Positions 1,761-63,886 of a stretch of DNA of 64,000 nt are shown one piece after another. The position numbers and the translations under genes are program-made. The notes under the pieces are model-generated. The model was given only the letters and a program-made list of their open reading frames with translations, was not told the DNA's origin and made no database searches. This DNA is from an uncultured Gemmatimonadales bacterium. Lineage in GTDB: Bacteria > Gemmatimonadota > Gemmatimonadetes > Gemmatimonadales > GWC2-71-9. The DNA is taken from positions 448,001-512,000 of the forward strand of contig CAWCVB010000002.1 of the NCBI GenBank assembly GCA_963798915.1, written 5' to 3'. Positions within the stretch are counted from its first letter, which is position 1. Each line of letters opens with the position of its first letter.

Positions 1761-2530
1761 TACGGATGGTGCAGCGCGAATCCGCCCACATGCACGTCCA
1801 GATTGTGATTGATGCGGAGTCCGACGATGCCGTTGAGGTCGCCGGGAGTCGCATCCATTTCGTAGACGCTGGTCCCGTTGACCAGGAACTTCGCCTTGCC
1901 GGGCGTCGTCGCATCGATCTCAAGCTTGTTGGTCGCCTTGCCCGCGGCATCCTGCGACTGCACCGCAGCGTTCGCCACCCAGCCGTCGGAGACGTTTGAC
2001 GTTTCCGCGCCGTTCCGCTTCTTGATCAGGAACTTGCCGTCGCCCCGGACCAGGAAATAGGTGTATTGCTGGCCCTCACCGCCCAGCGCCTTGCCGCCGA
2101 AGAAGAGGCCGTAGCCCTCCGGGTGCGTTGGCGCCTTCGTCTGGGTGAAGGTGGCCACGGTATGGAAGGGCCCATTGGCCTTGTCACTGGCCCGGTACAG
2201 GATGGCAGCGGGTCCCATCGTGGCATGGAACCCGTCGCCCATGGTCACGAACTTGACGTTGGCGAGCGGCGCATCCCGGTCGGTGCGGGCGGCCCAGCCC
2301 TCGGGAAGGGTGCCGCCTCCCTGGACCTGGTGGTCCGGGTCGGCGTGATCCATGCCCTTCATATCGTGATCCATGCCCTTCATATCGTGATCCATGCCCT
2401 TCATATCGTGATCCATGCCCTTCATCTGGGCATGGGCCGAATCGGTTTTGGGTGTGGTGGTGGGCTGCTGCGCCAGGGCAGGGGTGGTGGCAAACAGGGC
2501 TGCGGCGGCCATCAGGGTCAACGACTTCAT
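1760..2530 (-). CDS. Secreted protein with His/Met-rich MKGMDHD repeats and a beta-sandwich-like domain
   Basis: Signal peptide MKSLTLMAAAALFATTPALA; four 21-bp repeats at 2344-2425. Confidence 0.8.
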   Translation of the reverse strand: MKSLTLMAAAALFATTPALAQQPTTTPKTDSAHAQMKGMDHDMKGMDHDMKGMDHDMKGMDHADPDHQVQGGGTLPEGWAARTDRDAPLANVKFVTMGDGFHATMGPAAILYRASDKANGPFHTVATFTQTKAPTHPEGYGLFFGGKALGGEGQQYTYFLVRGDGKFLIKKRNGAETSNVSDGWVANAAVQSQDAAGKATNKLEIDATTPGKAKFLVNGTSVYEMDATPGDLNGIVGLRINHNLDVHVGGFALHHP

Positions 2531-2611
2531 CGGTGTGTCTCCGTAGGGGGTTGAAGGCGGCTCCGGGGCGCGGTATGCTTCTGCCTCGCCCTACCGTTCG
2601 GAGCGCCGTCC

Positions 2612-2776
2612 ATGCTGCTGTATTACTTCGGGATGATCTTTGCCATCATTGGCGCCGGCGCCATCCTCTTTGCGCTGCCGTTCGTGAGCGCGGTCATTGG
2701 CGGGCTCGTGAACGCCATGATCACGTTCATGGCCGGTCCAATCGTGGACAAGTTTCTCGCCCGCCGCAAGAGCTAG
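2612..2776 (+). CDS. Small membrane protein (54 aa)
   Basis: Manual translation MLLYYFGMIFAIIGAGAILFALPFVSAVIGGLVNAMITFMAGPIVDKFLARRKS; GGAG upstream; below the ORF-track cutoff. Confidence 0.6.
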   Translation: MLLYYFGMIFAIIGAGAILFALPFVSAVIGGLVNAMITFMAGPIVDKFLARRKS

Positions 2777-3138
2777 GCGTTCGGCTTCTCGTCCAGCGTG
2801 CTGGCCTCCGGCGCCAGCGCGGCCCGGTGCGCTCCTTCAAGATTGATCCGAAAGTTGCCGAGCAGTTCGCGGAGGCCGCGGACCTTGACCTGTTGGCCGC
2901 CGCCTCGCCGGGTCAGCATGGCCATGTTGCCGGCCGTGTCCGCCAGCCGGTGCAGTCCCTTCAGCTGGCAGTTGGCCTTGATTTCGTCGAGCATCCGGGC
3001 CAGCGAGCGGACCGCGGCCTCATCGGCCTGCTGGATGGCCATGGACTCGATGGTGCGATGAATCCGGTCCAGCTTGGGCGACAGGGTCTTGAAGTATTCG
3101 AGCCGCGCCTGTTGTTGGTTCGAGAGCTTGTGGGCCAT
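2773..3138 (-). CDS. Hypothetical helical protein, weakly Hpt-like
   Basis: MAHKLSNQQQARLEYFKTL...LDEIKANCQLKGLHRLADTA; host-like codon usage. Confidence 0.65.
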   Translation of the reverse strand: MAHKLSNQQQARLEYFKTLSPKLDRIHRTIESMAIQQADEAAVRSLARMLDEIKANCQLKGLHRLADTAGNMAMLTRRGGGQQVKVRGLRELLGNFRINLEGAHRAALAPEASTLDEKPNA

Positions 3139-3272: not shown

Positions 3273-6200
3273 ATGAAACTGTCTGACATTTCGATCCGGC
3301 GGCCCATCTTCGCGAGCATGATGAGCCTGGCGCTGGTGCTCTTCGGCGTCATCGGCTACCGGCTGCTGCCAGTGCGCGAGTACCCCGACGTCGATCCACC
3401 CATCATCTCGGTCTCCACGGTGCTTGCCGGCGCCAATCCGCAGGTGATCGAGTCCGCCATCACCGATCCGCTCGAGGAAGAGCTGAGCACGGTGCCTGGC
3501 CTGCGCACCCTGACGAGCAGCAGTGCCGAGCAGGTCAGCAATATCACGCTCGAGTTCAACCTTGAGCGGGACGTGGATGACGCCGCGCAGGATGTCCGCG
3601 ATCGAGTCTCGCGGGTGCGCGGGCGCCTGCCGCAGGATATCGAGGAACCGGTCATCGCCAAGCAGGAGGCCGACGCCCAGCCCTTCTTCTGGCTGGCACT
3701 CTCGGGCGCCAACTATTCGCTCCTGCAGCTCTCGGACATTGCCGACCGCCTGGTGAAGGCGCGCCTGCAAAGCCTGCCGGGCGTGGGTCGGGCCCAGATC
3801 GCCGGCGAGCGGCGCTATTCGATGCGGGTCTGGCTCGACCCATCCGCGCTGACGGCCCATGAACTGACGGTGCAGGATGTCGAGGCCGCCATCCAGTCGC
3901 GCAACGTGGAAGTGCCGGCCGGCCGTATCGAGAGCCAGCGACGCGAGTTCAGCGTGCGCACGCTGGGCGAACTCAAGAACCCGGACGAGTTCGGCGAGCT
4001 CACCGTGGCCAATCAGGGTGGCCAGCTGGTGAAGCTGCGCGATCTGGGCCACGTCGAACTCGGGCCGCAGGATATTCGCAGTGTGCTCCGCTACAACGGC
4101 ACGTCCGCCGTCGCCATCGGCGTGGTGCGGCAGTCCAAGTCCAACCTGATCGAGGTGGCGGACGAGATCCGGGCGGCCCTGCCGGAGATCCAGGCGCAAT
4201 TGCCGCCCGGCGTGGACATCATCCCGGCGTTTGACGGCTCGACCTTCGTCCGCCGCTCCATCAGCGAGGCCCAGGAGACGCTGATCATCGCGGCGGTGCT
4301 GGTGATCCTGATCATTTTCGTCTTCCTCCGGAACCTGCGCGCCACGATCATTCCCGGGCTCGCCATCCCCGCCTCCATCATCTCCACCTTTGCCGTGATG
4401 TATTTCCTGGGCTTCTCCGTCAACAACCTGACGCTGCTCGCCCTGACGCTCGCCATCGGCATCGTGGTGGACGATGCCATCATCGTCCTGGAAAATGCCT
4501 ATCGGCACCAGGAAGAGCTGGGCGAGTCTCCTGAGGATGCCGCCATCAACGGCACCCGCGAGATCGCGTTTGCCGTCGTCGCCACCACCATTTCCCTGGT
4601 GGCCGTCTTCATTCCGCTCGCCTTCCTCAAGGGCAATACCGGACGGCTGTTCAACGAGTTCGGCATCGCAGTGGCGGGCTCGGTGGTCATCTCCGGCTTC
4701 GTCGCCTTGACGCTGACGCCCATGCTCTCGGCCAGGATCCTGCGGGTGCCCAGCCGGCACGGCTGGATGTACCAGAAGCTCGAACGCGGTTTTGACCGCT
4801 TGGCCTCCGGTTACGGACGCCTGCTGGATCGCGCGCTGCGGCACCGGCTCCTGGTGGTGGTCGGCGCCCTCGGCACCCTGCTGCTGGCCGCCTACTTCTT
4901 CTCGTCGCTCAAGCGAGAGTTCATCCCGCCCGAGGACAAGGGCTACTTCGTCATCTTCACCCAGGCGCCCGAGGGCAGCACGATCGACTACACCGACCAG
5001 TACCAGCGCCAGGTGGAGACCATCCTGGGGCGAACCAAGGACGTCGAGGGGTACTTCAGCATTATCGGATTCGGCGGGAACGTGGCGGGCGGCATCATCT
5101 TTGTCCGCCTCACCGACTGGTCGGTGCGCGACCGCAGGGTGGACGATGTACTGAACGAAGTGCGGCCTCAATTGTTCGGGATCTCGGGCATCATGGCGTT
5201 CGCCCAGAATCCACCTGCGTTCGGCTTCGGCAATCCGGTCCAGTTCGTGGTGCAGAATCCCAACTTTGATTCGCTCCGGATCGCGATGGACACGATGGTC
5301 ACCCGCGCGCGCGCCATTCCCGGGCTGCTCAACGTCAACACCGACCTCCGGGTCAACAAGCCCCAGCTGGAGGTCACCTTTGACCGCGACCGTGCCGAGG
5401 ATCTTGGCGTGCCGGTTCGCGCGGTGGCGAGCACCTTCCAGACCCTGCTGGGCGGGCGCCGCGTGAGCACCTTCACCCGCGACAACAAGCTGTATGACGT
5501 GATCGTCCAGCTGGAAGCCGAGGACCGGGCCACGCCGTCGGACATGAGCGGGCTCTTCGTCCGGGGCGAGCGTGGCGGCCTGGTGCAGATGTCCTCGCTC
5601 ATCCACAGCAACGAGAACGTCGGCCCGCGCCAGCTCAACCATTTCAACCGGGTGCGCGATTTCACCCTCCAGGCGAGCCTGGCCCCCGGCTTCACGCTCG
5701 GTGAGGCCCTCGACTCGCTGAATGCGCTCGCCACCGAAGTGCTGCCGCGAAACAGCTCCGTGGCACTGGCGGGCGAAAGCCGGGAGCTCAACGAAAGCGG
5801 GACCTCGCTGTACTTCGCGTTCCTGCTCGCGCTGGTCGTCGTCTTCATGGTGCTCGCGTCGCAGTTCGAGTCGCTGGTGCACCCGTTCACGGTACTCCTT
5901 GCAGTGCCACTGGCGGTCACCGGGGCGCTGGTCACGCTGTGGATCGCGGGATCGACGATCAACCTCTACAGTCAGATCGGCATGATCCTGCTGATCGGCC
6001 TGGTGACCAAGAACTCGATCCTGCTGGTGGAGTATGCCAACCAGCTCAAGGATCGGGGCATGAGCGGCGCCGACGCGGTGCGTGAGGCAGGCCGGATCCG
6101 CCTCCGGCCCATTCTCATGACCAGCGTGGCCACCATCATGGGCGCCATTCCCATCGCCTACGGTCTCGGTGCCGGGTCCATCAGCCGGCGGCCGCTGGGC

Positions 6201-14568: not shown

Positions 14569-14574
14569 GTTTAC

Positions 14575-14609
14575 GGTCGTCGGTCGTCGGTCGTCGGTCG
14601 TCGGTCATC
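14575..14609. repeat. (GGTCGTC)n heptamer tandem repeat
   Basis: Seen directly. Confidence 0.9.
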
Positions 14610-14658
14610 AGGCGTGCATTCGTCTGCGGCCACAGCCACTACCAGCCACCCCGGACAT

Positions 14659-14880
14659 ATGTCGCAGGCCCAGCCGCTCGGCAGACTCTCTCGCACCGTC
14701 GCCGGCCTCATCGGCATCATCTGGATGGCCGCCGGCCTGGCTGCCATCGGGCTTGGCGCAGTGGCGCGCGAGTGGGGCAGTGTGCTGCTCGGTGTGCTGG
14801 CGGTCTACTTCGGCGGCATCTGGTGGCAGGTCGCGCGCACCGGCCGCTACCTCGTGTGGCCCTTTCGGCGACGCCGGTGA
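14659..14880 (+). CDS. Small two-TM membrane protein
   Basis: Two hydrophobic helices, basic C-terminus. Confidence 0.65.
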   Translation: MSQAQPLGRLSRTVAGLIGIIWMAAGLAAIGLGAVAREWGSVLLGVLAVYFGGIWWQVARTGRYLVWPFRRRR

Positions 14881-14985
14881 CTGCGACTCATGACCCATCA
14901 CCCCGCAGCCCGCGACCAGCGACCCGCGACCCGCGACCCGCGACTCATGACTCATGACCCATCACCCGCGACCCATGATCCATGA
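14880..14985. repeat. Mixed heptamer tract (ACCCGCG / ACTCATG units)
   Basis: Seen directly. Confidence 0.75.
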
Positions 14986-15920
14986 CCCCTGACCTCAATC
15001 GCCGGGAGTTCGTGGCTGCGCTCGGCGCCGTGACAGTGGCCGGGAGCGCGTTGCCCGGCCCGGCGCCCGGGTTGCCTGCCACACGCCTCGTCCTGCTTGG
15101 CACTGGCGGCGGTCCCACGCCCAAGCGTCGCCGAGCCGCACCGGCCCAGGTGATCCTCGCCGGCGACTCGGCATACGTGGTGGATTGCGGCAGCGGCGTC
15201 GCCCGGCAGCTGGTGCTGGCTGGCGTCCCGATCCTGGCCCTCAAGCATGTCTTCATCACGCATCACCACTCGGACCACAACGCCGACTATGGAAACCTGC
15301 TCCTCCTGTCGTGGGCCAGCGGGCTTGTCCGCCCGGTGGATACATGGGGACCCCCTCCGCTGGCACGCATCACCGAGCTCTTCCTGGAGATGAGCCGGCC
15401 TGACATCGACGTGCGCATGGTGGATGAGGGCCGCCCGGCGCTGGCGCCTCTGATCCGGGTCCACGAGGTGTCTGAAGCCGGTCTGGTAATGCAGGACGCC
15501 AATCTCCGTGTCACTGCCGCGCGAGTGGAACATCCCATGGTCGAGCACGCGTACGCCTATCGGTTCGACGCAGCGGATCGAAGCATCGTCATTTCCGGTG
15601 ATACCGCGCGCTCAGATGCGCTGGTCAGGCTGGCGGCAGGCGCGGACGTGCTGGTGCATGAGGCGTTCTACCCGCCAGCCGTCGAGGGGATGGTCAAGGG
15701 CCGGCTGAATGCCGAACCACTCCGGCGGCATCTGCTGGCGAGTCACACGTCGGCCGAGGATTGTGGCCGGGTCGCGGCAGCGGCGGGGGTGAAGACACTG
15801 GTGCTCTCGCATTTTGTCCCGGCCGAAGATCCGCCGGTCAGCGACGCGATGTGGGCTGATGCGGCAGGAAAGCATTTCAAGGGGAAGATCGTCGTAGGGC
15901 GGGACCTGATGGAGGTCTGA
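14982..15920 (+). CDS. Tat-exported MBL-fold hydrolase (RNase Z/arylsulfatase-like)
   Basis: NRREFV twin-arginine; LGTGGG; THHHSDH; SGDT; HEA; LSHFVP. Confidence 0.88.
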   Translation: MTPDLNRREFVAALGAVTVAGSALPGPAPGLPATRLVLLGTGGGPTPKRRRAAPAQVILAGDSAYVVDCGSGVARQLVLAGVPILALKHVFITHHHSDHNADYGNLLLLSWASGLVRPVDTWGPPPLARITELFLEMSRPDIDVRMVDEGRPALAPLIRVHEVSEAGLVMQDANLRVTAARVEHPMVEHAYAYRFDAADRSIVISGDTARSDALVRLAAGADVLVHEAFYPPAVEGMVKGRLNAEPLRRHLLASHTSAEDCGRVAAAAGVKTLVLSHFVPAEDPPVSDAMWADAAGKHFKGKIVVGRDLMEV

Positions 15921-17100: not shown

Positions 17101-17814
17101 ATGCCATCCCCACTCCGCCTCGCCTTGGTCGGCGACTACGATCCTGCCGTCACCGCCCACCGCGCCATTCCGGTAGCGCTGCGTCTCGCCGGTGAAGCAC
17201 TCGACACTCCGCTCCTTTACGAGTGGGTTGACACCACCACACTCGGCTCGGACGCAGAAGGTTCCCTCGCCGGTTACCAAGCCATATGGCTCGTTCCCAA
17301 CAGTCCCTACGCCAACACGGTCGGTGCGCTGTCGGCCATCCGTTTCGCCCGCGAATCCGGACGTCCGTTTCTCGGCACATGTGCCGGCTTTCAGCACGCC
17401 ATCATGGAGTACGCGGGCGCCGTCTGGCAGCTCGGACGGTCCCAGGCGGCTCACGCCGAACTCGATCCCGATGCGGTGCACCCGGTCATTGCGCCTCTTG
17501 CCTGCTCACTAGTGGAAGAGCAGGGCAGAGTGCGCTTCGCGCCCGGCTCACAGCTGGCCCGGCTGTATCATGCCGGTGAAGCCATTGAGGCCTATCACTG
17601 CAACTACGGTCTCAATCCATGGCACGCCCAGCGTCTGGATACCGGCGCGCTACGCGCCACGGCCTGGGACGACGCCGGCGACATCCGCGGTGTCGAACTG
17701 GCTGATCATCCATTCTTCGTTGCCACGCTGTTTCAGCCTGAACGGGCGGCGCTGGAGGGTCGAGTACCTGCGGTGGTCCGTGGATTGGTGGAGGCGGCAC
17801 GCTGTGAGCTATGA
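17101..17814 (+). CDS. CTP-synthase C-terminal-like class I glutamine amidotransferase
   Basis: ALVGDY, PFLGTCAGFQH, YHCNYGLN, HPFFVATLFQPE. Confidence 0.88.
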   Translation: MPSPLRLALVGDYDPAVTAHRAIPVALRLAGEALDTPLLYEWVDTTTLGSDAEGSLAGYQAIWLVPNSPYANTVGALSAIRFARESGRPFLGTCAGFQHAIMEYAGAVWQLGRSQAAHAELDPDAVHPVIAPLACSLVEEQGRVRFAPGSQLARLYHAGEAIEAYHCNYGLNPWHAQRLDTGALRATAWDDAGDIRGVELADHPFFVATLFQPERAALEGRVPAVVRGLVEAARCEL

Positions 17815-17973
17815 GCTGTGCGCGGTGAGCTGTGCGCGGTGAGCTGCGCGCGGTGAGCTGCGCGCTGTGCGCTGTGCGCTGAGAGTATGGTAACTTTCGC
17901 GACCGACGACCGACGACCGACGACCGACGACCGACGACCGACGACCGACGACCGACGACCGACGACCGACGAC
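17803..17973. repeat. Heptamer tracts (GCTGTGC/GCGGTGA, then about 10 copies of CGACCGA)
   Basis: Seen directly. Confidence 0.9.
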
Positions 17974-18063
17974 CACCCATCTTGCCCACCTTGCCTGTTC
18001 CGCCTACCATCCACTTGACCGTGCCGTTTGTGAGATTCGACTCGAACGACGTGCAATACATAC

Positions 18064-36727: not shown

Positions 36728-37128
36728 CGCGAATCCATGTGATCAGAAGACTCGCGGGAGCCAAGACCGTTGCTTCATACCTGCCCTGAATGGAATACAT
36801 CTCCCATCGTGGAGATCCCACATGTCTCGCAGTCAGCTCCGTGACCCCGTTTCGCCGGAGGTCGTCCGCCACGGCGCTTCGTTGAATCCAGGTCCGCTCG
36901 CCGCCGTCACTGATGACGCGGGGGTAGAGGGGATAGTGGTCGGCAACGGCAATACTTCCGCGCATTTGGTCCAGCCGCCCAAGGATCTACTGGTCCGGAT
37001 CCCGACGCTGGTGAGCAGATCCCTCGCGTTGCTCGGGATGACAGACTCTCTCGACGACCGACGACCGACGACCGACGACCGACGACCGACGACCGACGAC
37101 TACCTGCCCGCCTTGCCCGCCTTGCCGT

Positions 37129-46445: not shown

Positions 46446-46645
46446 AGAGGAGGAATGTAATGAGGGGTCAGGGAATAGGGGTTAGGGGTGCACGGCTCCG
46501 GGCCCGCGCGAAAATCCGATCGCAGCACGCCCCAGTCCCCAATCCCCAATCCCTATTCCCCAATCCCTAATCCCCAATCCCTAAATCCACCTTGCACCCT
46601 TCTCGATCCGAGCCGACATTACCCGCTCCCATTTCCTGGCCAGCG

Positions 46646-48164: not shown

Positions 48165-48249
48165 GATCTTGCGACGTTCGGCCCGCCCATCCCGCCCATC
48201 CCGCCCATCCCGCCCATCCCGCCCATCCCGCCCATCCCGCCCATCCCGC

Positions 48250-48939
48250 CTACCTTCCGTCCCACACCAGCGTCGCATTCCCAATCGGCAGCGGGACCGT
48301 GGCGCGGGCGGGAATCCGTCTCGCGTCATCCGTGATCCAGAGTTCCGACGAACGCCCCGCCGCCGCAACCCGGAGATGCAGGCAGCGCACCGATGCGCCG
48401 GAGCCGACCTTGACCGTCTCCCTGCCGAGCGCTGAGACGGTGATGGGATTGAACCCGCTGCGGAAGTAGCCATTGAGCGCGCGGGACTGTCCCGGCGCCA
48501 GCGACAGGGTGCGGATGTAGTAGAGCAGCGCCAGTTCATCCATGGGCTGGGCCGGCGCCACGAACTCCTGGCTGCTGCCTGCCAGCCGATAGCGCAATGA
48601 GTCGGGCAGGATCTGCCATTGCTCGTCGGTCACCCGACCCGCAAGATCCATGTGGCGGTGGAACTGCAGCGAGGCAAAGTCAGCCGACTCGACCCACGAG
48701 GTCAGGTCCCAACTCGACTTGAGGCCGGGCGGGCCGCCATTGGCGCTCAGCGTAAAGACGACCGCCCGCTTGCCCCGGACGGCCGCGTTCCGGGCGACGT
48801 GAATATCGGCAACGCCGGCAGGGAAGTAGCCGACCTTGGCGTCGTAGTGCAGCGTCTCGCCGACCGCGAAGGGCCAGTCGGCGCGCGCATGCGTCAACGA
48901 TCCGGCGAGCATGACTGCAATGACTGGAAGAACCCGCAC
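48250..48939 (-). CDS. DUF3108-like secreted protein
   Basis: WPFAVGETLHY...LWITDDARRIPAR; signal peptide. Confidence 0.8.
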   Translation of the reverse strand: MRVLPVIAVMLAGSLTHARADWPFAVGETLHYDAKVGYFPAGVADIHVARNAAVRGKRAVVFTLSANGGPPGLKSSWDLTSWVESADFASLQFHRHMDLAGRVTDEQWQILPDSLRYRLAGSSQEFVAPAQPMDELALLYYIRTLSLAPGQSRALNGYFRSGFNPITVSALGRETVKVGSGASVRCLHLRVAAAGRSSELWITDDARRIPARATVPLPIGNATLVWDGR

Positions 48940-50209: not shown

Positions 50210-50406
50210 GGGTCGAGAGGTCGCGAGTCGCGGGTCGTCGGTCGTCGGTCGTCGGTCGTCGTCATTGCGAGGAGGGGCCATCGGGCCCCCTACGGGGCCC
50301 GCAATGGCCCCTCGTCGCAATATGAACTACTATGCCGACGACCGACGACCGACGACCGACGACTGATGACCGACGACTGACAACCGACGACTGACGACCG
50401 ACGACC
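50210..50406. repeat. GTCATTGCGAGG palindrome (50261-50321) flanked by inverted (GTCGTCG)n / (CGACGAC)n tracts
   Basis: Seen directly. Confidence 0.8.
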
Positions 50407-59188: not shown

Positions 59189-59932
59189 TTAGCGGGGCGG
59201 AGTCCAGATACGCGGGTTAGGCGGCAGTTCGTACCTTGCAGTACCGAACCTGCGCTCGAGGCTCTCTATGTGCTCAACATCAGTTAATCTGCTGATGGCG
59301 AGGCGAGCTGTCTCCAACCTGCCGACGCAAAACTGCATGCGATTGAGCGACATGACCGCCACGGTCTGTTCGCGTAGATAATCTATGAGTCCGGAGATGT
59401 GGAACACGCCCTGTGGCATCGGTGTCTTGAACTCCGCGTCTCCAGAAAAAACGACGACTGATCTGACCGCGTCGGGCGGTAGGAAGTCGAGACGGGCGTG
59501 TACCGCCTGAGCATGCCGGTTGTTCTGAATGAGCGGGTTCTGGAACCTGAACTTGTACCCAAACAGCAGTTGCGTCCATTTCGTGTCCCTCGCATCGGCA
59601 AAGATCCAACCGCGATAGTGCTTGGTCTCGATGACGAACACACCGAATAGCGACACGAGGACGTGGTCGATCTGGGTTGTGCCTTTTCCCCACTGAAGGG
59701 TGAGGTGGTTCATCAGGTGGTAGCCGGGCAGACTGAAATGTGCCTTCAACACGCTGGCAACTACCGCCTCGCCACGATTCTGGTACGTGCTGTTACGGCG
59801 TGCACGAAAGCGCCAGATGCCAAAGCCAGCAATAGCCGCGCCGAGGACAAAGAGTAGGGTTCGGTGGTCTTGAAGCCAGTCTAAGAGCAGTGTCGACAGG
59901 CGAGCACCTATCTCTTCGAGTAGTGATGTGAC
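59189..59932 (-). CDS. NERD nuclease-domain cassette protein with N-terminal TM; no canonical start for the N-terminal part
   Basis: QNRGEAVV; TQIDHVLVS; GVFVIETKHY; FQNPLIQN; 3' end runs into an attC arm. Confidence 0.8.
   Translation of the reverse strand, partial: VTSLLEEIGARLSTLLLDWLQDHRTLLFVLGAAIAGFGIWRFRARRNSTYQNRGEAVVASVLKAHFSLPGYHLMNHLTLQWGKGTTQIDHVLVSLFGVFVIETKHYRGWIFADARDTKWTQLLFGYKFRFQNPLIQNNRHAQAVHARLDFLPPDAVRSVVVFSGDAEFKTPMPQGVFHISGLIDYLREQTVAVMSLNRMQFCVGRLETARLAISRLTDVEHIESLERRFGTARYELPPNPRIWTPPR
59190..59222 (-). repeat. attC 5' arm (partner arm decayed)
   Basis: GCCTAAC-CCGCGTATCTGGACTCC at the end of the NERD ORF. Confidence 0.55.
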
Positions 59933-59970
59933 CGCGAGCCGCTATGGGAGGGCCTCGCGACCCTTCGGCA

Positions 59971-60069
59971 GTATAACGAAACGCAAATCGGCTGCGGGGC
60001 GGCGGCCGCAGCGGGATCGACTTTACCAGCGGAGGCCGCCGTCCCGGCTGCTGTATTTGCCTGTTAGAC
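59971..60069 (-). repeat. Integron attC site
   Basis: GTCTAAC-AG-GCAAATACAGCAGCCGGGACGGCGGCC...GGCCGCCGCCCCGCAGCCGATTTGC-GTTTC-GTTATAC. Confidence 0.9.
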
Positions 60070-60119
60070 AGCGTGTCAGTGCGCCATGGCCACCTAGCTC
60101 GCCACGAGCAAGGGAGCCA

Positions 60120-60899
60120 TCATGCACCGTACCGCTCCGCACTGAAACGCCTCCAATGTGTCCCTGTCCAGCGGATGCCAGTTGTATTCGACGTTGAGAC
60201 GAGCCACGCACCCGTGAGTGGCGATGGTAGCGTCGGAGCCGCTGGTGGCAACGCAGCTAGGTCGCCGTCCAAATACGATTGGACCGACCACGGCGCTCCA
60301 GCATAGTCAACGATCACGAAAGCCTGGCAATCAGCTGCGCCCGACCGCGCTAGCTTCGCAATGACGTCAGCCCGTTGCGGGGCGCTGAGAAATGCAGTGA
60401 TCCACTCTGGGATGGCTACTCCTTCGGTATCAACAGGGCCGCCTATGCCCTCCAAGGTCATGTGAACCTTGCCCTCGCCATCTACCCGGAAGCAGCTGAT
60501 GAACGTGATGCCATCACGATCGAGCACGGAGAAGAGCTCCGGGTTGGACCGATTCAGACGCCAGTCCACGTGGACCGCTGACAGCACGCCTTCATGTTCG
60601 CAGCCCTGAAGAATCGCCTCGAGACTTGGAGCAAGCCCCTTCATCTTGGCGCCCGGCTTCAGAATGACAGTCCAATCGCCCCGCAACGCTAGGGTCAGAG
60701 GGCCCCGCGCGGGTCCGATGTTCCAGGTCTCGGTCCGGACACCATCAACCGCGCCGACACATTCTATCGCAATGGCCGGGGAATCAACCGGGCCGATGCG
60801 GAGATCGTACATCGACGGCTGGGAGTTATCGTCGTGGACCACCACAGACTCTCGCAACTCGTTTTGGACGATGCTCTGCGCCCATGATTCGACGCTCAT
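60120..60899 (-). CDS. Hypothetical cassette protein, possible PD-(D/E)XK fold
   Basis: MYDLRI...AIECV; single ORF between attC sites. Confidence 0.7.
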   Translation of the reverse strand: MSVESWAQSIVQNELRESVVVHDDNSQPSMYDLRIGPVDSPAIAIECVGAVDGVRTETWNIGPARGPLTLALRGDWTVILKPGAKMKGLAPSLEAILQGCEHEGVLSAVHVDWRLNRSNPELFSVLDRDGITFISCFRVDGEGKVHMTLEGIGGPVDTEGVAIPEWITAFLSAPQRADVIAKLARSGAADCQAFVIVDYAGAPWSVQSYLDGDLAALPPAAPTLPSPLTGAWLVSTSNTTGIRWTGTHWRRFSAERYGA

Positions 60900-60931
60900 T
60901 CGGAATTTCACTCCGATGCCCGCGACCCGCT

Positions 60932-61052
60932 GCCTAACGGATTGCAAATCAGCTGCAAACGACCTGAGACAACTTATGGTCCTTTGTGGCCACTGGGAGC
61001 GTCTCTTGCCGCGGCGCTTAGGCCTCTACCGCGTTTGTCGGCTGCATTTGCG
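60932..61052 (-). repeat. attC site, 3' part (interrupted by the IS; 5' part at 62622-62631)
   Basis: GCAAATGCAGCCGACAAACG...CGTTTGCAGCTGATTTGC-AATCC-GTTAGGC. Confidence 0.88.
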
Positions 61053-61469
61053 CCTCTGAAAGTGCGGCTGTCAATGGGTGTACGTGCCCCTCGGACGGCC
61101 GAGCCGCCCTTGCGCTGCACCCACCGAATATGCCCACAGCTCCCTCAGATCCAAGCGCGGCACGAAGCCGGCTTCACGCGCCTCTACGGACGCCATGGTC
61201 CAGGAGCATCATGCGAAGGAGGTGGCCCATTCGGGTTACCGGGGGCACTGCCGACTACGCGCCTCTGAAAGTGCGGCTGTCAATGGGTGTACGTGCCCCT
61301 CGGACGGCCGAGCCGCCCTTGCGCTGCACCCACCGACTATGCCCACAGCTCCCTCAGATCCAAGCGCGGCACGAAGCCGGCTTCACGCGCCTCTACGGAC
61401 GCCATGGTCCAGGAGCATCATGCGAAGGAGGTGGCCCATTCGGGTTACCGGGGGCACTGCCGACTACGC
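61052..61469 (-). repeat. Direct tandem duplication (2 x 209 bp) of the IS 3' non-coding end; candidate seekRNA/bridge RNA
   Basis: 61052-61260 equals 61261-61469 except A61128 vs C61337. Confidence 0.93.
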
Positions 61470-62621
61470 AGCGGATCCCAGCGTATGCGCCGGGCGCACC
61501 TCCAGCTTGTCGTGCTGACGGAGCCACTGCTCGTAGCCCCATCCTTCCTGCCAACACCAGTACAGGTAGCAGCTCAGCTTCCGGGCCGCCGCCACCGTCG
61601 CCTTGGCCTTGCCCTTGGCTCGGAGGAGCCGTTGATACTGCTCGCCCACCGGGCCGGGCGCCAACTTCAGGCTCTGGACGATCTCGATCAGAATCCACTT
61701 GAGCCACGGACTGCCCACGCGACCCACCCCACCGTGCGTCGTCTTGCCACCGGAGCTCTGCGTGCTCGGCACCAGCCCCGCATAGGCCGCCAGCTCGTGG
61801 CTGCTCCGGAACCGCCGGATATCGCCCAGCTCCGCCAGCAGCAGCGCCGCGCCGAAGGGGCCGATGCCCGGCCAGGTCTGGAGCAACTGGGCCACGGGAT
61901 CGCCCTGCACCAGCTGCAGCACGCGCCGATCGAGACGCTTGATGCGAAGATCGAGCTGATCGACCAGCTCAAGCAGCAGGTCCACCTGGAGCCGCCCCAG
62001 CTCCGAAAGTGGCACCGTCGCCAGCCACGTCCGTCCCGCCTTGCCGTACAGGTCCGTCACGTCGGTCCGACGGTTCTCGCTCGTCAGGTGCCCGTGAATC
62101 CGATTCTTCAAGCTGGTCCGCAGGCGAACCAGGTAGGCGCGCCCCCGCAACAACTTGCGGTGCGCCCGCACCTCGGGACTCGGCACCCACACCACCGGGA
62201 GCAGGTTCGCACGTAGCAGGTCCGCCAGCTTGCGGGCATCGATCGGATCGGTCTTGGCCCGCGCCTGCCAGATCACCTTCACCTGAGACGGATGCGCGGC
62301 CACCGCGGCCATCCCCGTCGCGCTGAGCTGGTCATGCAGCCAGGCCCAGTACAGCGTCGCCTCCATCGCCACCGTCACCGGCCCGCCGAGTCCGCGGAGC
62401 CAGGCGATCACCTCCGCGGCGTCCGCCGGCAACCGGCGGTGTTCCGCCACCACGGCGCCGCCCGCATCCAGCGCACAGGCCGTGATGTAACGCTTGTGCA
62501 GATCCAACCCGACCCAGATCATCGCTGTCTCCTTGAGGGGCACTCAAGGAAGGTGCTACGCGAATCACCGGCCCACGAGGGGGCGGAGCGGTGGCCGCGC
62601 AGCGCCGCACTCTCATAAGGT
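61053..62621 (-). mobile_element. IS1111-type (IS110 family) element inserted in an attC site
   Basis: Subterminal IRs TGAGAGTGCGGC (62615-62604) / GCCGCACTTTCA (61068-61057); CG on both flanks; DEDD transposase; 3' non-coding region. Confidence 0.92.
61464..62522 (-). CDS. IS110-family DEDD transposase/recombinase
   Basis: VGLDLHK; MEAT; KTDPIDA; PGIGP; YAGLVPSTQSSGG; AARKL; AGGAG SD. Confidence 0.96.
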   Translation of the reverse strand: MIWVGLDLHKRYITACALDAGGAVVAEHRRLPADAAEVIAWLRGLGGPVTVAMEATLYWAWLHDQLSATGMAAVAAHPSQVKVIWQARAKTDPIDARKLADLLRANLLPVVWVPSPEVRAHRKLLRGRAYLVRLRTSLKNRIHGHLTSENRRTDVTDLYGKAGRTWLATVPLSELGRLQVDLLLELVDQLDLRIKRLDRRVLQLVQGDPVAQLLQTWPGIGPFGAALLLAELGDIRRFRSSHELAAYAGLVPSTQSSGGKTTHGGVGRVGSPWLKWILIEIVQSLKLAPGPVGEQYQRLLRAKGKAKATVAAARKLSCYLYWCWQEGWGYEQWLRQHDKLEVRPAHTLGSAA

Positions 62622-62637
62622 CGGGTTAGACGGCATT

Positions 62638-63261
62638 CTAGTCTTGCTCGAGTTGCCTCGACACTTTAGCGGTCCAAATGCTGTCTTCGTGCGCTGCCAA
62701 TGCCGTGTCTGGTTGATCGGCACTACGGAGCCGCTCTACTGCGGCAGCAGCGATCGCTGCTGCTTCGGACTCCTTGCAAGCGTCTCGCACGCCATACGCA
62801 TTTGCTCGAGGGGACCGTGCAATCCCATTGACAATGTCGATGGCGTCAGAGAAAGCGTGTGCCCGGCCGCGCAATGTGTCGCCTGTCCAGGCACCGCGCA
62901 CTTCCATTCCCTCGCTGAGCATGGCGGGGCGTAAGAGCAGCAAAGAGTCCGGTGTCGTGGCAAGCCAAAGCCACGCACGGTCATATTCTGGGGCCGGCGA
63001 TGACGCTTCTGCCTTCGGCTCGTCAGGAACGAACTGGATGACCCGCCAGCCGTGCCTGCCAGCAAAAGTGGAGAGCCAGGAGTCGATGGCGCTCGTCATA
63101 TTCAGGCGGCGGGAGGATCGCCAGATGTCGCCCGGCGGCGAAGGTGTCCAAGTTCCGACGCCGAGCGCGAGGCATCGCATGGCTTTCGATGTCCGAGCGG
63201 CCGACGGTGGTATTGCTGCCACGATGACGACACAGGCGCTGAACAAGATCTTACCGTTCAT
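62638..63261 (-). CDS. Secreted hypothetical cassette protein
   Basis: Starts 16 nt after attC GTTAGAC; stop 6 nt before the next GTCTAAC. Confidence 0.75.
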   Translation of the reverse strand: MNGKILFSACVVIVAAIPPSAARTSKAMRCLALGVGTWTPSPPGDIWRSSRRLNMTSAIDSWLSTFAGRHGWRVIQFVPDEPKAEASSPAPEYDRAWLWLATTPDSLLLLRPAMLSEGMEVRGAWTGDTLRGRAHAFSDAIDIVNGIARSPRANAYGVRDACKESEAAAIAAAAVERLRSADQPDTALAAHEDSIWTAKVSRQLEQD

Positions 63262-63277
63262 TGATCTCTCGAATGTC

Positions 63278-63376
63278 GTCTAACGAAAAGCAAATCAGCT
63301 GCGGGGCGGCGGCTGCAGCGTCATCGATGTCTCCAGCGGAGGCCGCCGGCCCCGCTGCTGCATTTGCCTGTTAGGC
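63278..63376 (-). repeat. Integron attC site
   Basis: GCCTAAC-AG-GCAAATGCAGCAGCGGGGCCGGCGGCC...GCCGCCGCCCCGCAGCTGATTTGC-TTTTC-GTTAGAC; close paralog of 59971-60069. Confidence 0.92.
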
Positions 63377-63385
63377 GGCATCAAA

Positions 63386-63886
63386 TCAGTAGCCCACCCA
63401 CTCTCCGACGTCCCGGGTGAGAACGCCGAGTGTGTCCAGGAGTACGGCTTCCTCGGGCGTGACTCGAAGCACGCCTTCCTGCTCGTGCGAGATGATGGCT
63501 AGCATGAGTTCCCCGTCACGCCATACAATCGGATCCTCCAGCCATCCACGCTGCATGTCCAGCTCATAGGTGAACAAGTGGTCGGGGCCGAAGGCGCGAA
63601 GTCTAGCAACGGCCTCCGCAGTCAATGTCCACACATGCACGTCGTCGCCACGATCGGAGGTAGTAGGGTTGGCCACGACTCGACGACGCTGAACACCACG
63701 GGACCACGGTGCCAGCGCAGCTTCGAACGCATCGCACGCGAGCGCTGGTGCATTCTCGATGGCGACCCTATCAACGGAAAACTCGTTTGCGCCGCGCGCG
63801 AAGCACCAGTCGAGCAACTGCCATGCTTGCTCGGCGTCGAAATCGGCTTTGAATAGATGTCGAGTGATCAGTTGCTGCTCGTGCAT
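63386..63886 (-). CDS. Hypothetical cassette protein
   Basis: MHEQQLI...WLEDPIVWRDGELMLAIISHEQEG; stop 9 nt before attC. Confidence 0.75.
   Translation of the reverse strand: MHEQQLITRHLFKADFDAEQAWQLLDWCFARGANEFSVDRVAIENAPALACDAFEAALAPWSRGVQRRRVVANPTTSDRGDDVHVWTLTAEAVARLRAFGPDHLFTYELDMQRGWLEDPIVWRDGELMLAIISHEQEGVLRVTPEEAVLLDTLGVLTRDVGEWVGY

Follow-up and report, generated by a model that had tools for sequence, protein, structure and literature searches.

The locus described here raises the question of whether an insertion sequence that ends twice also encodes two guide RNAs, and of how it came by its second end. In the window, the whole 64,000-nucleotide (64 kb) stretch of DNA that we analysed, the first-pass annotation had reported that the last codon and stop of a transposase, the 3′ non-coding region and the right end occur twice with a 209-bp period. 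Both of our repeat searches reproduced this arrangement: Tandem Repeats Finder returned a tandem repeat at 61050-61469 (period 209, 2.0 copies, 99% matches, score 833), and a separate repeat search resolved two head-to-tail units, distal (61050-61258) and proximal (61259-61467), at most 2 bp away from the coordinates first given. Direct comparison over 209 positions likewise bore out the report of a sole difference, A61128 versus C61337, with the units identical at 208/209 positions. Each unit contains GCG-TAG (the last codon and stop), the 3′ non-coding region, TTGACA, the subterminal inverted repeat and the right end. GC at 61468-61469 repeats the first two bases of the unit, and the junction therefore has 2 bp of microhomology. 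The duplication is thus confirmed as real in the sequence as assembled, and among the 39 rows of tandem repeats found in the 64-kb window it alone has a period greater than 28 bp.

The window also holds short arrays with a period of 7 bases or multiples of it (14574-14994, 17800-17974, 37052-37100, 46530-46584, 50335-50406 and others, e.g. CGACCGA × 10.7 and CGACGAC × 7.0) and a 9-base array at 48182-48250.

By its sequence, the element carrying the duplication is a single, intact insertion sequence of the IS1111 type, found in a Gemmatimonadales bacterium that belongs to an uncultured soil lineage; it sits within one arm of a palindromic repeat ended by GTCTAAC (Table 1). Its transposase matches the Pfam families DEDD_Tnp_IS110 (PF01548, 2.7e-22) and Transposase_20 (PF02371, 3.1e-21), aligns over its full length with the proteins of relatives and contains GLVPSTQSSG, which fits the IS1111 motif GLxPxxxxSG given in PMC11187229. 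The 12-bp subterminal inverted repeats, TGAGAGTGCGGC on the left (62615-62604) and GCCGCACTTTCA on the right (61068-61057 and 61277-61266), are 92% complementary; the right repeat is present twice, hence the two right ends first claimed, and both are intact, with an inverted repeat and GAGG in each unit. The initial assignment to IS1111 also stands, given the Pfam domains of a DEDD transposase, the 12-bp inverted repeats (11-13 bp in the group), the long downstream non-coding region and guides of the seekRNA type, with a top-strand guide 5′ of an overlapping bottom-strand guide and orientation-specific insertion into one conserved target. ISEc11, ISPa11 and ISKpn4, the IS1111 elements with seekRNA (Siddiquee et al., 2024, PMC11187229), share with this element a ~350-aa DEDD transposase with GLxPxxxxSG, 12-bp subterminal inverted repeats, a long non-coding region downstream of the gene and a repeated palindromic target that is entered in a single orientation.

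Table 1. Coordinates of the element, its predicted guide RNA and its surroundings in the window (helix coordinates are given as 5′ strand/3′ strand).
Feature	Position	Strand	Remarks
Left target half (TAAC + C)	62624..62628	-	Part of GTCTAAC-ended palindromic repeat; motif shared by unoccupied sites
Whole element including duplication	61053..62623	-	1571 bp; single-tail length 1362 bp (62623-61262)
Left end	62604..62623	-	CG + ACCTTA extension 62623-62616; left inverted repeat TGAGAGTGCGGC 62615-62604
Transposase gene	61464..62522	-	352 aa; ATG 62522; stop TAG 61466-61464
seekRNA target-binding domain	61427..61503	-	~77 nt; covariation-supported, predicted
Helices of target-binding domain	Closing stem 61503-61492/61437-61427; P0 61480-61477/61452-61449; P1 61473-61468/61460-61455	-	
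T guide GCGCAUACGC(U)	61481..61491	-	Antisense to right target half; present once only
Pseudo-target at transposase stop	61468..61478	-	GGATCCGC-TG-C, running on as GTAGTCGG into the unit
B guide G-UAACCCG-AAU (proximal copy)	61438..61448	-	Same sense as left target half + CG
Middle domain, helices P3, P4, P5	61348..61416	-	92.7%, 100%, 95.8% paired; compensatory changes
SNP, proximal copy	61337	-	G on minus strand (derived); 11 nt 3′ of P3
Proximal right end	61262..61283	-	TTGACA 61283-61278; inverted repeat GCCGCACTTTCA 61277-61266; GAGG 61265-61262
Internal junction C-GC-G	61258..61261	-	Crossover interval GC 61260-61259, from two source sequences
Distal unit	61050..61258	-	5′-truncated seekRNA gene + own B guide 61239-61229 + middle domain
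Right end of distal unit	Inverted repeat 61068-61057; GAGG 61056-61053; then target bases CGC 61052-61050	-	
Palindromic REP/MITE-like repeat, insertion target	60924..61052	.	Arms 61052-61030 and 60924-60965; empty equivalent in L008

We compared the element with 28 related loci (up to 86% protein identity), obtained by scanning a single genome for each species and nearly all of them from Gemmatimonadota metagenome-assembled genomes. A tail profile matched once in each of 18 loci, with 14 of these copies complete and 4 truncated at contig ends, had no match in the remaining 10, and found two copies in the window only; the non-coding stretch from stop to right end is ~205 nt in each unit and 204-245 nt in relatives. 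The comparison of tail copy number that the first-pass annotation had proposed found two copies in none of the 28 relatives, none of which shows the same event, and 202,014 bases of related loci and window contained no solo tail modules. The exact transposase occurs on a single 784,222-bp contig, and its 90% cluster has three members. Rfam returned no family in 60500-63200 at E up to 1, the element was unmatched in the plasmid collection in distant mode, and a promoter and terminator scan of 60900-62750 gave 0 sites of either kind, so that a separate promoter for the distal unit cannot be claimed.

Around the element, the two flanking ORFs had no Pfam match, and a NERD (nuclease-related) protein (PF08378, E 9.3e-25) is encoded on the minus strand at 59189-59752, ~1.3 kb downstream. 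Among the relatives, L013 has an apparently broken transposase gene (2196-3128, with residues 1-344 in ~910 bases and a frame that misses the usual stop) and an intact tail and right end.

The ends of the element were taken from the conserved junctions of relatives and from unoccupied target sites. In 16/16 left junctions read, TAAC-N is followed by CGA(C/T)(C/T)...TATGA, and every right end read closes with TTCAGAGG (CAGAGGG in L012), after which come x-G-C and the palindrome arm. Unoccupied copies of the repeat in the window, L008, L009 and L021 show G(C/T)CTAAC, mostly four bases ending in GC or AC, and the same arm, and in L008 an empty and an occupied repeat can be aligned side by side. 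We accordingly place the element, as the probable reading of these junctions, as CGACCTTA...CTTTCAGAGG from 62623 to 61053, between TAAC-C and CGC-AAATGCAGCC. All seven relatives that are informative, in that their target bases differ from CG, have CG at the left junction and the target's own two bases at the right. A core of GC or GA at the junctions was considered and dropped on comparison with the unoccupied sites. The predicted terminal extensions, CGACCTTA (8 bp) and GAGG (4 bp), compare with 7 (or 6) and 3 in the IS1111 group (PMC11187229), the empty sites being paralogues and a shift of 1-2 bp possible.

Within 4 kb, the window has three copies of a palindromic REP/MITE-like repeat whose termini are of the GTCTAAC type (59965-60075; 60924-61052, the insertion site; and 63270-63390), and L008 has one occupied and one empty copy of a ~190-bp palindromic repeat of the same kind.

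Single-sequence folds of the proximal and distal contexts were no better than shuffles (z = -1.02 and +0.16), so we built the map of the guide RNA on covariation, using an alignment of ~60 nt on either side of the stop codon from 18 elements. The alignment shows a scaffold made of a closing stem (GGAGGUG-C-GCCC with GGGC-CACCUCC), a helix P0 (UGGG with CCCG) and a hairpin P1 with the stop codon in its loop, with two unpaired stretches between. Across this target-binding scaffold 98.9% of 377 cells are paired and 6 pairs carry compensatory changes; 0/500 shuffles reached any of five measures, and slid controls were at most 64.7% paired. The first 37 nt of the domain are coding sequence, overlapping about the last 13 transposase codons. 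A hairpin CGAAUGGG...UUCG, given by RNAalifold for a tail alignment beginning 20 nt before the stop, was dropped once the upstream partner strand was added. In L021, at ~4200-4260, a 17-base unit, GACCCGGTCAGTCCCCT, occurs three times head to tail within the variable part of the tail.

The T guide, encoded by the transposase-tail codons Ala-His-Thr-Leu, corresponds to the reverse complement of its own element's right flank from base x onward; in the right half of the target it pairs with the top strand. In 15 elements it matched that flank at a mean of 7.4/11 positions, compared to 5.76 for the flanks of other elements, and 0/5000 permutations reached the observed total; scores were 10/11 in L001, L013 and L014 and 9 in L002 and L010. 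Its translation differs among loci (Ala-His-Thr-Leu here, Val-His-Leu-Leu in L001, Val-Gln-Ala-Leu in L009), and across L001-L021 and the window the variable tail residues (AHT, VHL, VQA, KQA, PNA and others) change with the target. The T guide of this copy fits its own right flank at only 6/11, compared to 10/11 for L001, which has the same kind of flank. Its intended target may be a GCGTATGC-type form of the repeat, because the His-Thr tail is common to the two closest known proteins, both of which have the tail RPVHTLGSAA. Given the 6/11 fit and an exact transposase known from one contig only, the activity of this copy is uncertain.

The B guide repeats the element's own left junction, TAAC-N-CGA, over at least 7 nt in 11/12 elements (L001 is the exception), and its variable base N covaries with the junction, being A (L002, L013), G (L014), T (L016) or C. 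The T and B guides overlap by 2 nt (xG) in the target. In the middle domain, an invariant AGAGGCG (61394-61388) equals the right end plus CG in the same sense and matches the donor junction in 11/12 elements, L013 matching over 6 nt only (GAGGCG). IS1111 seekRNAs are described with a top-strand match 5′ of a bottom-strand match, the two overlapping in the target, and a short form of 70-100 nt (PMC11187229); the guide order and the 2-nt overlap are shared here, and the target-binding domain falls within that size range. Together, the target-binding and middle domains span 156 nt, close to the 145-170 nt "long seekRNA" of the same paper, to which they probably correspond. The first guide lies within transposase codons here, a point left unstated in the portion of that text available to us, in which the complementing fragment starts ~43 bp before the deletion; and, unlike in ISEc11, ISPa11 and ISKpn4, the tail and right end are duplicated.

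This map determines what the extra copy contains. G61467, where the unit starts, opens the P1 loop, and the distal copy is therefore left without the T guide and without the 5′ strands of three helices. Those parts, namely the 5′ strand of the closing stem (61503-61492), the T guide and the 5′ strands of P0 and P1, occur once only, upstream of the unit; in the distal copy the proximal right end stands where they would be and is unable to form their helices. In the tail alignment the P0 pairs are broken by the distal row alone, and this row is also among those that break the P1 pairs (RNAalifold). On the predicted map, then, the distal unit is a 5′-truncated RNA gene with a complete right end, not a second guide RNA. 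The first-pass annotation had suggested that the element carries a two-RNA mini-array with diverging specificity, in which the single-base difference alters a donor guide. An array in this sense has a complete guide RNA in every unit, and the proposal fails at the distal unit, which has neither the T guide nor the three 5′ strands, since the duplication begins only beyond the 5′ half of the guide RNA.

The array proposal also depends on the single-base difference, which lies ~100 nt downstream of the B guide. Read on the minus strand, this segment is GGGCAUAGUCGG in the proximal copy and GGGCAUAUUCGG in the distal one. All five of the closest elements whose sequence extends this far (L001, L002, L003, L009 and L013) have U at this position, which shows that the distal base (T at 61128) is ancestral and the proximal G derived. 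In favor of two working RNAs, the derived G produces GUCG, the complement of the CGAC with which the left end begins, and gives a predicted helix one more G-C pair (-44.7 versus -41.3 kcal/mol), and two right ends are present. The four-base complementarity that the first-pass annotation pointed out is correct; however, eight alignable copies (distal, L001, L002, L003, L008, L009, L010 and L011) have UUCG rather than GUCG, and all of those with a left end read (L011's excepted) start with CGAC. With UUCG kept opposite the same CGAC in relatives, an ancestral donor guide at this site is not indicated.

We also considered other pairings for this segment. Pairing with the B guide (CCGAAU/AUUCGG) was rejected on 99/500 shuffles that were as good, and it is missing in several relatives. 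A role as a same-sense guide for the right flank was rejected on a total of 86 against a permutation mean of 84.9, with 1234/3000 permutations and 279/1000 shuffles reaching 86. RNAalifold predicted no conserved pairs at the segment, and the hand-built 10-11 bp helix UCGGUGGGUG/CACCCAUUGA beside the SNP folds well in the close subfamily but is 67.8% paired across the alignment, with the SNP pair unpaired in 9/16 rows. The claim that the SNP falls in a candidate right donor guide thus finds neither covariation with the flank, the B guide or the donor nor a conserved pair, and nothing in the alignments places the SNP inside a demonstrable guide. Taken together with the truncation, these results make a working two-RNA array very improbable.

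The derived sequence GCATAGTCGG (61332-61341) is identical at 9/10 positions to GCGTAGTCGG at the start of the unit (61460-61469), and the ancestral form at 8/10; these near-repeats lie 129 bp apart, and the SNP could be a chance or a templated change.

How the duplication arose can be approached from its internal junction, AGAGG-C-GC-GTAGTCGG, which combines the right junction AGAGG-C-GC-AAATG with the gene end CCGC-T-GC-GTAGTCGG. This places the crossover in or beside the GC at 61260-61259, 1-3 bp beyond the last element-specific base of the right end. The first-pass annotation had read this junction as a joined right end and had preferred recombinase-mediated self-insertion to slippage, and its position does favor a transposase-linked origin over random slippage: the only long-period repeat in 64 kb ends at the right end, which argues for involvement of the transposase. 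We infer that the extra copy most likely arose as a side product when the element itself recombined. The transposase-RNA complex would act at the right end and connect this end with a half-match located at the stop codon of the same element, either by exchange between sister copies or by insertion of a circle followed by deletion between two transposase copies, and the T-to-G change would have arisen later, in the proximal copy.

The right arm of the pseudo-target at the stop codon matches the element's own T guide at 7/11 positions, with GCGTA contiguous beside the core, compared to 6/11 for the real flank; its left arm matches the B guide at 2/5 (by eye). GCGTA is found at 70/16,040 GC sites in the window, and a match of 7/11 is reached by 5.3% of 16,037 scored GC sites. 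This half-match was noticed after the fact and is suggestive only. A canonical half-match event would, on the pattern seen in relatives, leave T at 61261, but C is found there, which would restrict the exchange to the 3′ side of the core (61260|61259) or point to a microhomology join after a nick at that position. The positions of the two breakpoints fit half-match recombination as an origin, although it is not proven. We consider the account as a whole, in which an intact IS1111-type element with a seekRNA partly inside its gene underwent a transposase-linked half-match duplication and later acquired the SNP, somewhat likelier to be right than wrong.

The same junction can be read without any transposase, as a tandem duplication made by the host through replication slippage or unequal exchange at the GC microhomology, with a coincidental position. 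Two shared bases are enough for such a junction, the C at 61261 is what a simple microhomology join predicts, and the match at the pseudo-target is weak, its score being reached by one GC site in roughly every twenty (the 5.3% above). However, the breakpoint of the only tandem repeat in the window whose period exceeds 28 bp would then have fallen within 3 bp of the right end, a position with a prior chance well under 1% by rough estimate rather than computation, and preprint surveys, in the parts available to us, find such units enriched at IS110 loci with boundaries at donor ends. We therefore regard a host-made duplication as fairly unlikely. An assembly artefact, in which the chromosome has one unit and a graph loop was mis-resolved, perhaps fed by reads from an excised circle or a strain variant, has in its favor that a 209-bp repeat with one SNP is a classic spot for assembly errors and that partial circles are reported for IS110-family elements. 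Yet the two sources of the junction share only 2 bp, so that molecules spanning the junction must exist somehow; the copies differ by one base; and the exact transposase lies on one long contig in a contiguous assembly, all of which makes an artefact unlikely.

A stronger form of the transposase-linked account is that the element's own seekRNA steers the right end into its own 3′ coding end and that the T-to-G change has an effect, leaving what might be called a self-targeting fossil. The T guide, ...CAUACGC (His-Thr codons), would pair with GCGTA at a stop codon conserved in the family, and half-match recombination would build modules bounded by right ends. The T-to-G change would then not be neutral: it would raise identity to the new right flank from 8 to 9/10 (GCAUAGUCGG versus GCGTAGTCGG), add a base pair and tune the proximal copy to its new neighbourhood. 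We hold this extension to be unlikely as a whole, and in what follows we return to the transposase-linked half-match duplication with a later SNP.

Seen against known systems, the duplication is not a new kind of system, as tandem units and half-match recombination have both been described in two 2026 preprints, as far as their accessible text goes. Tandem non-coding units beside IS110 transposases (n = 468) have boundaries that keep one-sided donor matches (bioRxiv 10.64898/2026.08.14.744561). That survey counts adjacent units on the same strand of at least 50 bp, with at least 95% identity and at least two copies, beside an intact transposase, and the present units have all of these properties. 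A one-sided match is likewise present here, with units ending in a complete right end that forms an LD|RT junction, and the repeat search found no left-end similarity at the start of the unit. This case differs from those expansions in that the element is of the IS1111 type with a 3′ RNA, in that there are only two copies, and in that the boundary of the unit maps to one particular hairpin loop within the guide RNA; the word IS1111 has 0 occurrences in the main text of that preprint. We found no report in the literature of such a duplication in an IS1111-type element, although the figures and supplements of the survey preprint may cover cases.

For IS621, half-match recombination was found to require only the core and one arm of the guide loop (bioRxiv 10.64898/2026.08.31.748434). 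The pseudo-target described here has the corresponding form, xG and a right arm with the first four bases after the core paired and the left arm unmatched, whereas the junction base at 61261 misfits top-strand exchange; the IS621 work is cell-free and, in the part of the text at hand, offers nothing on IS1111-type enzymes. In ISPpu9, alternative right ends and modular circles were shown experimentally (Pares-Guillen et al., 2025, PMC12288879), and its ssr9 shares with the present case an extra RNA-gene module downstream of the transposase that ends in a copy of the right-end box. However, ssr9 has a left-end-like A′ box, a B′ box and a different small RNA, compared to a copy of the element's own tail here, and the repeat search found neither the left inverted repeat nor the left extension in the vicinity of 61467 or 61258, where an ISPpu9-like module would have a left-end-like box. 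The duplication thus fits the recently described tandem non-coding expansions, rather than with the ISPpu9 type or with an array of complete guides.

What is worth keeping from this locus is a map of the RNA backed by covariation, a guide inside the coding tail and a unit boundary defined within the RNA map. For engineering, it is a reminder that a guide can find half-sites within its own element. Because the first guide lies inside the last transposase codons, retargeting alters the tail of the protein, and duplications that start after the stop codon are unable to copy a working guide. The locus thereby provides a clean natural example of RNA-guided insertion sequences gaining extra non-coding modules and ends.
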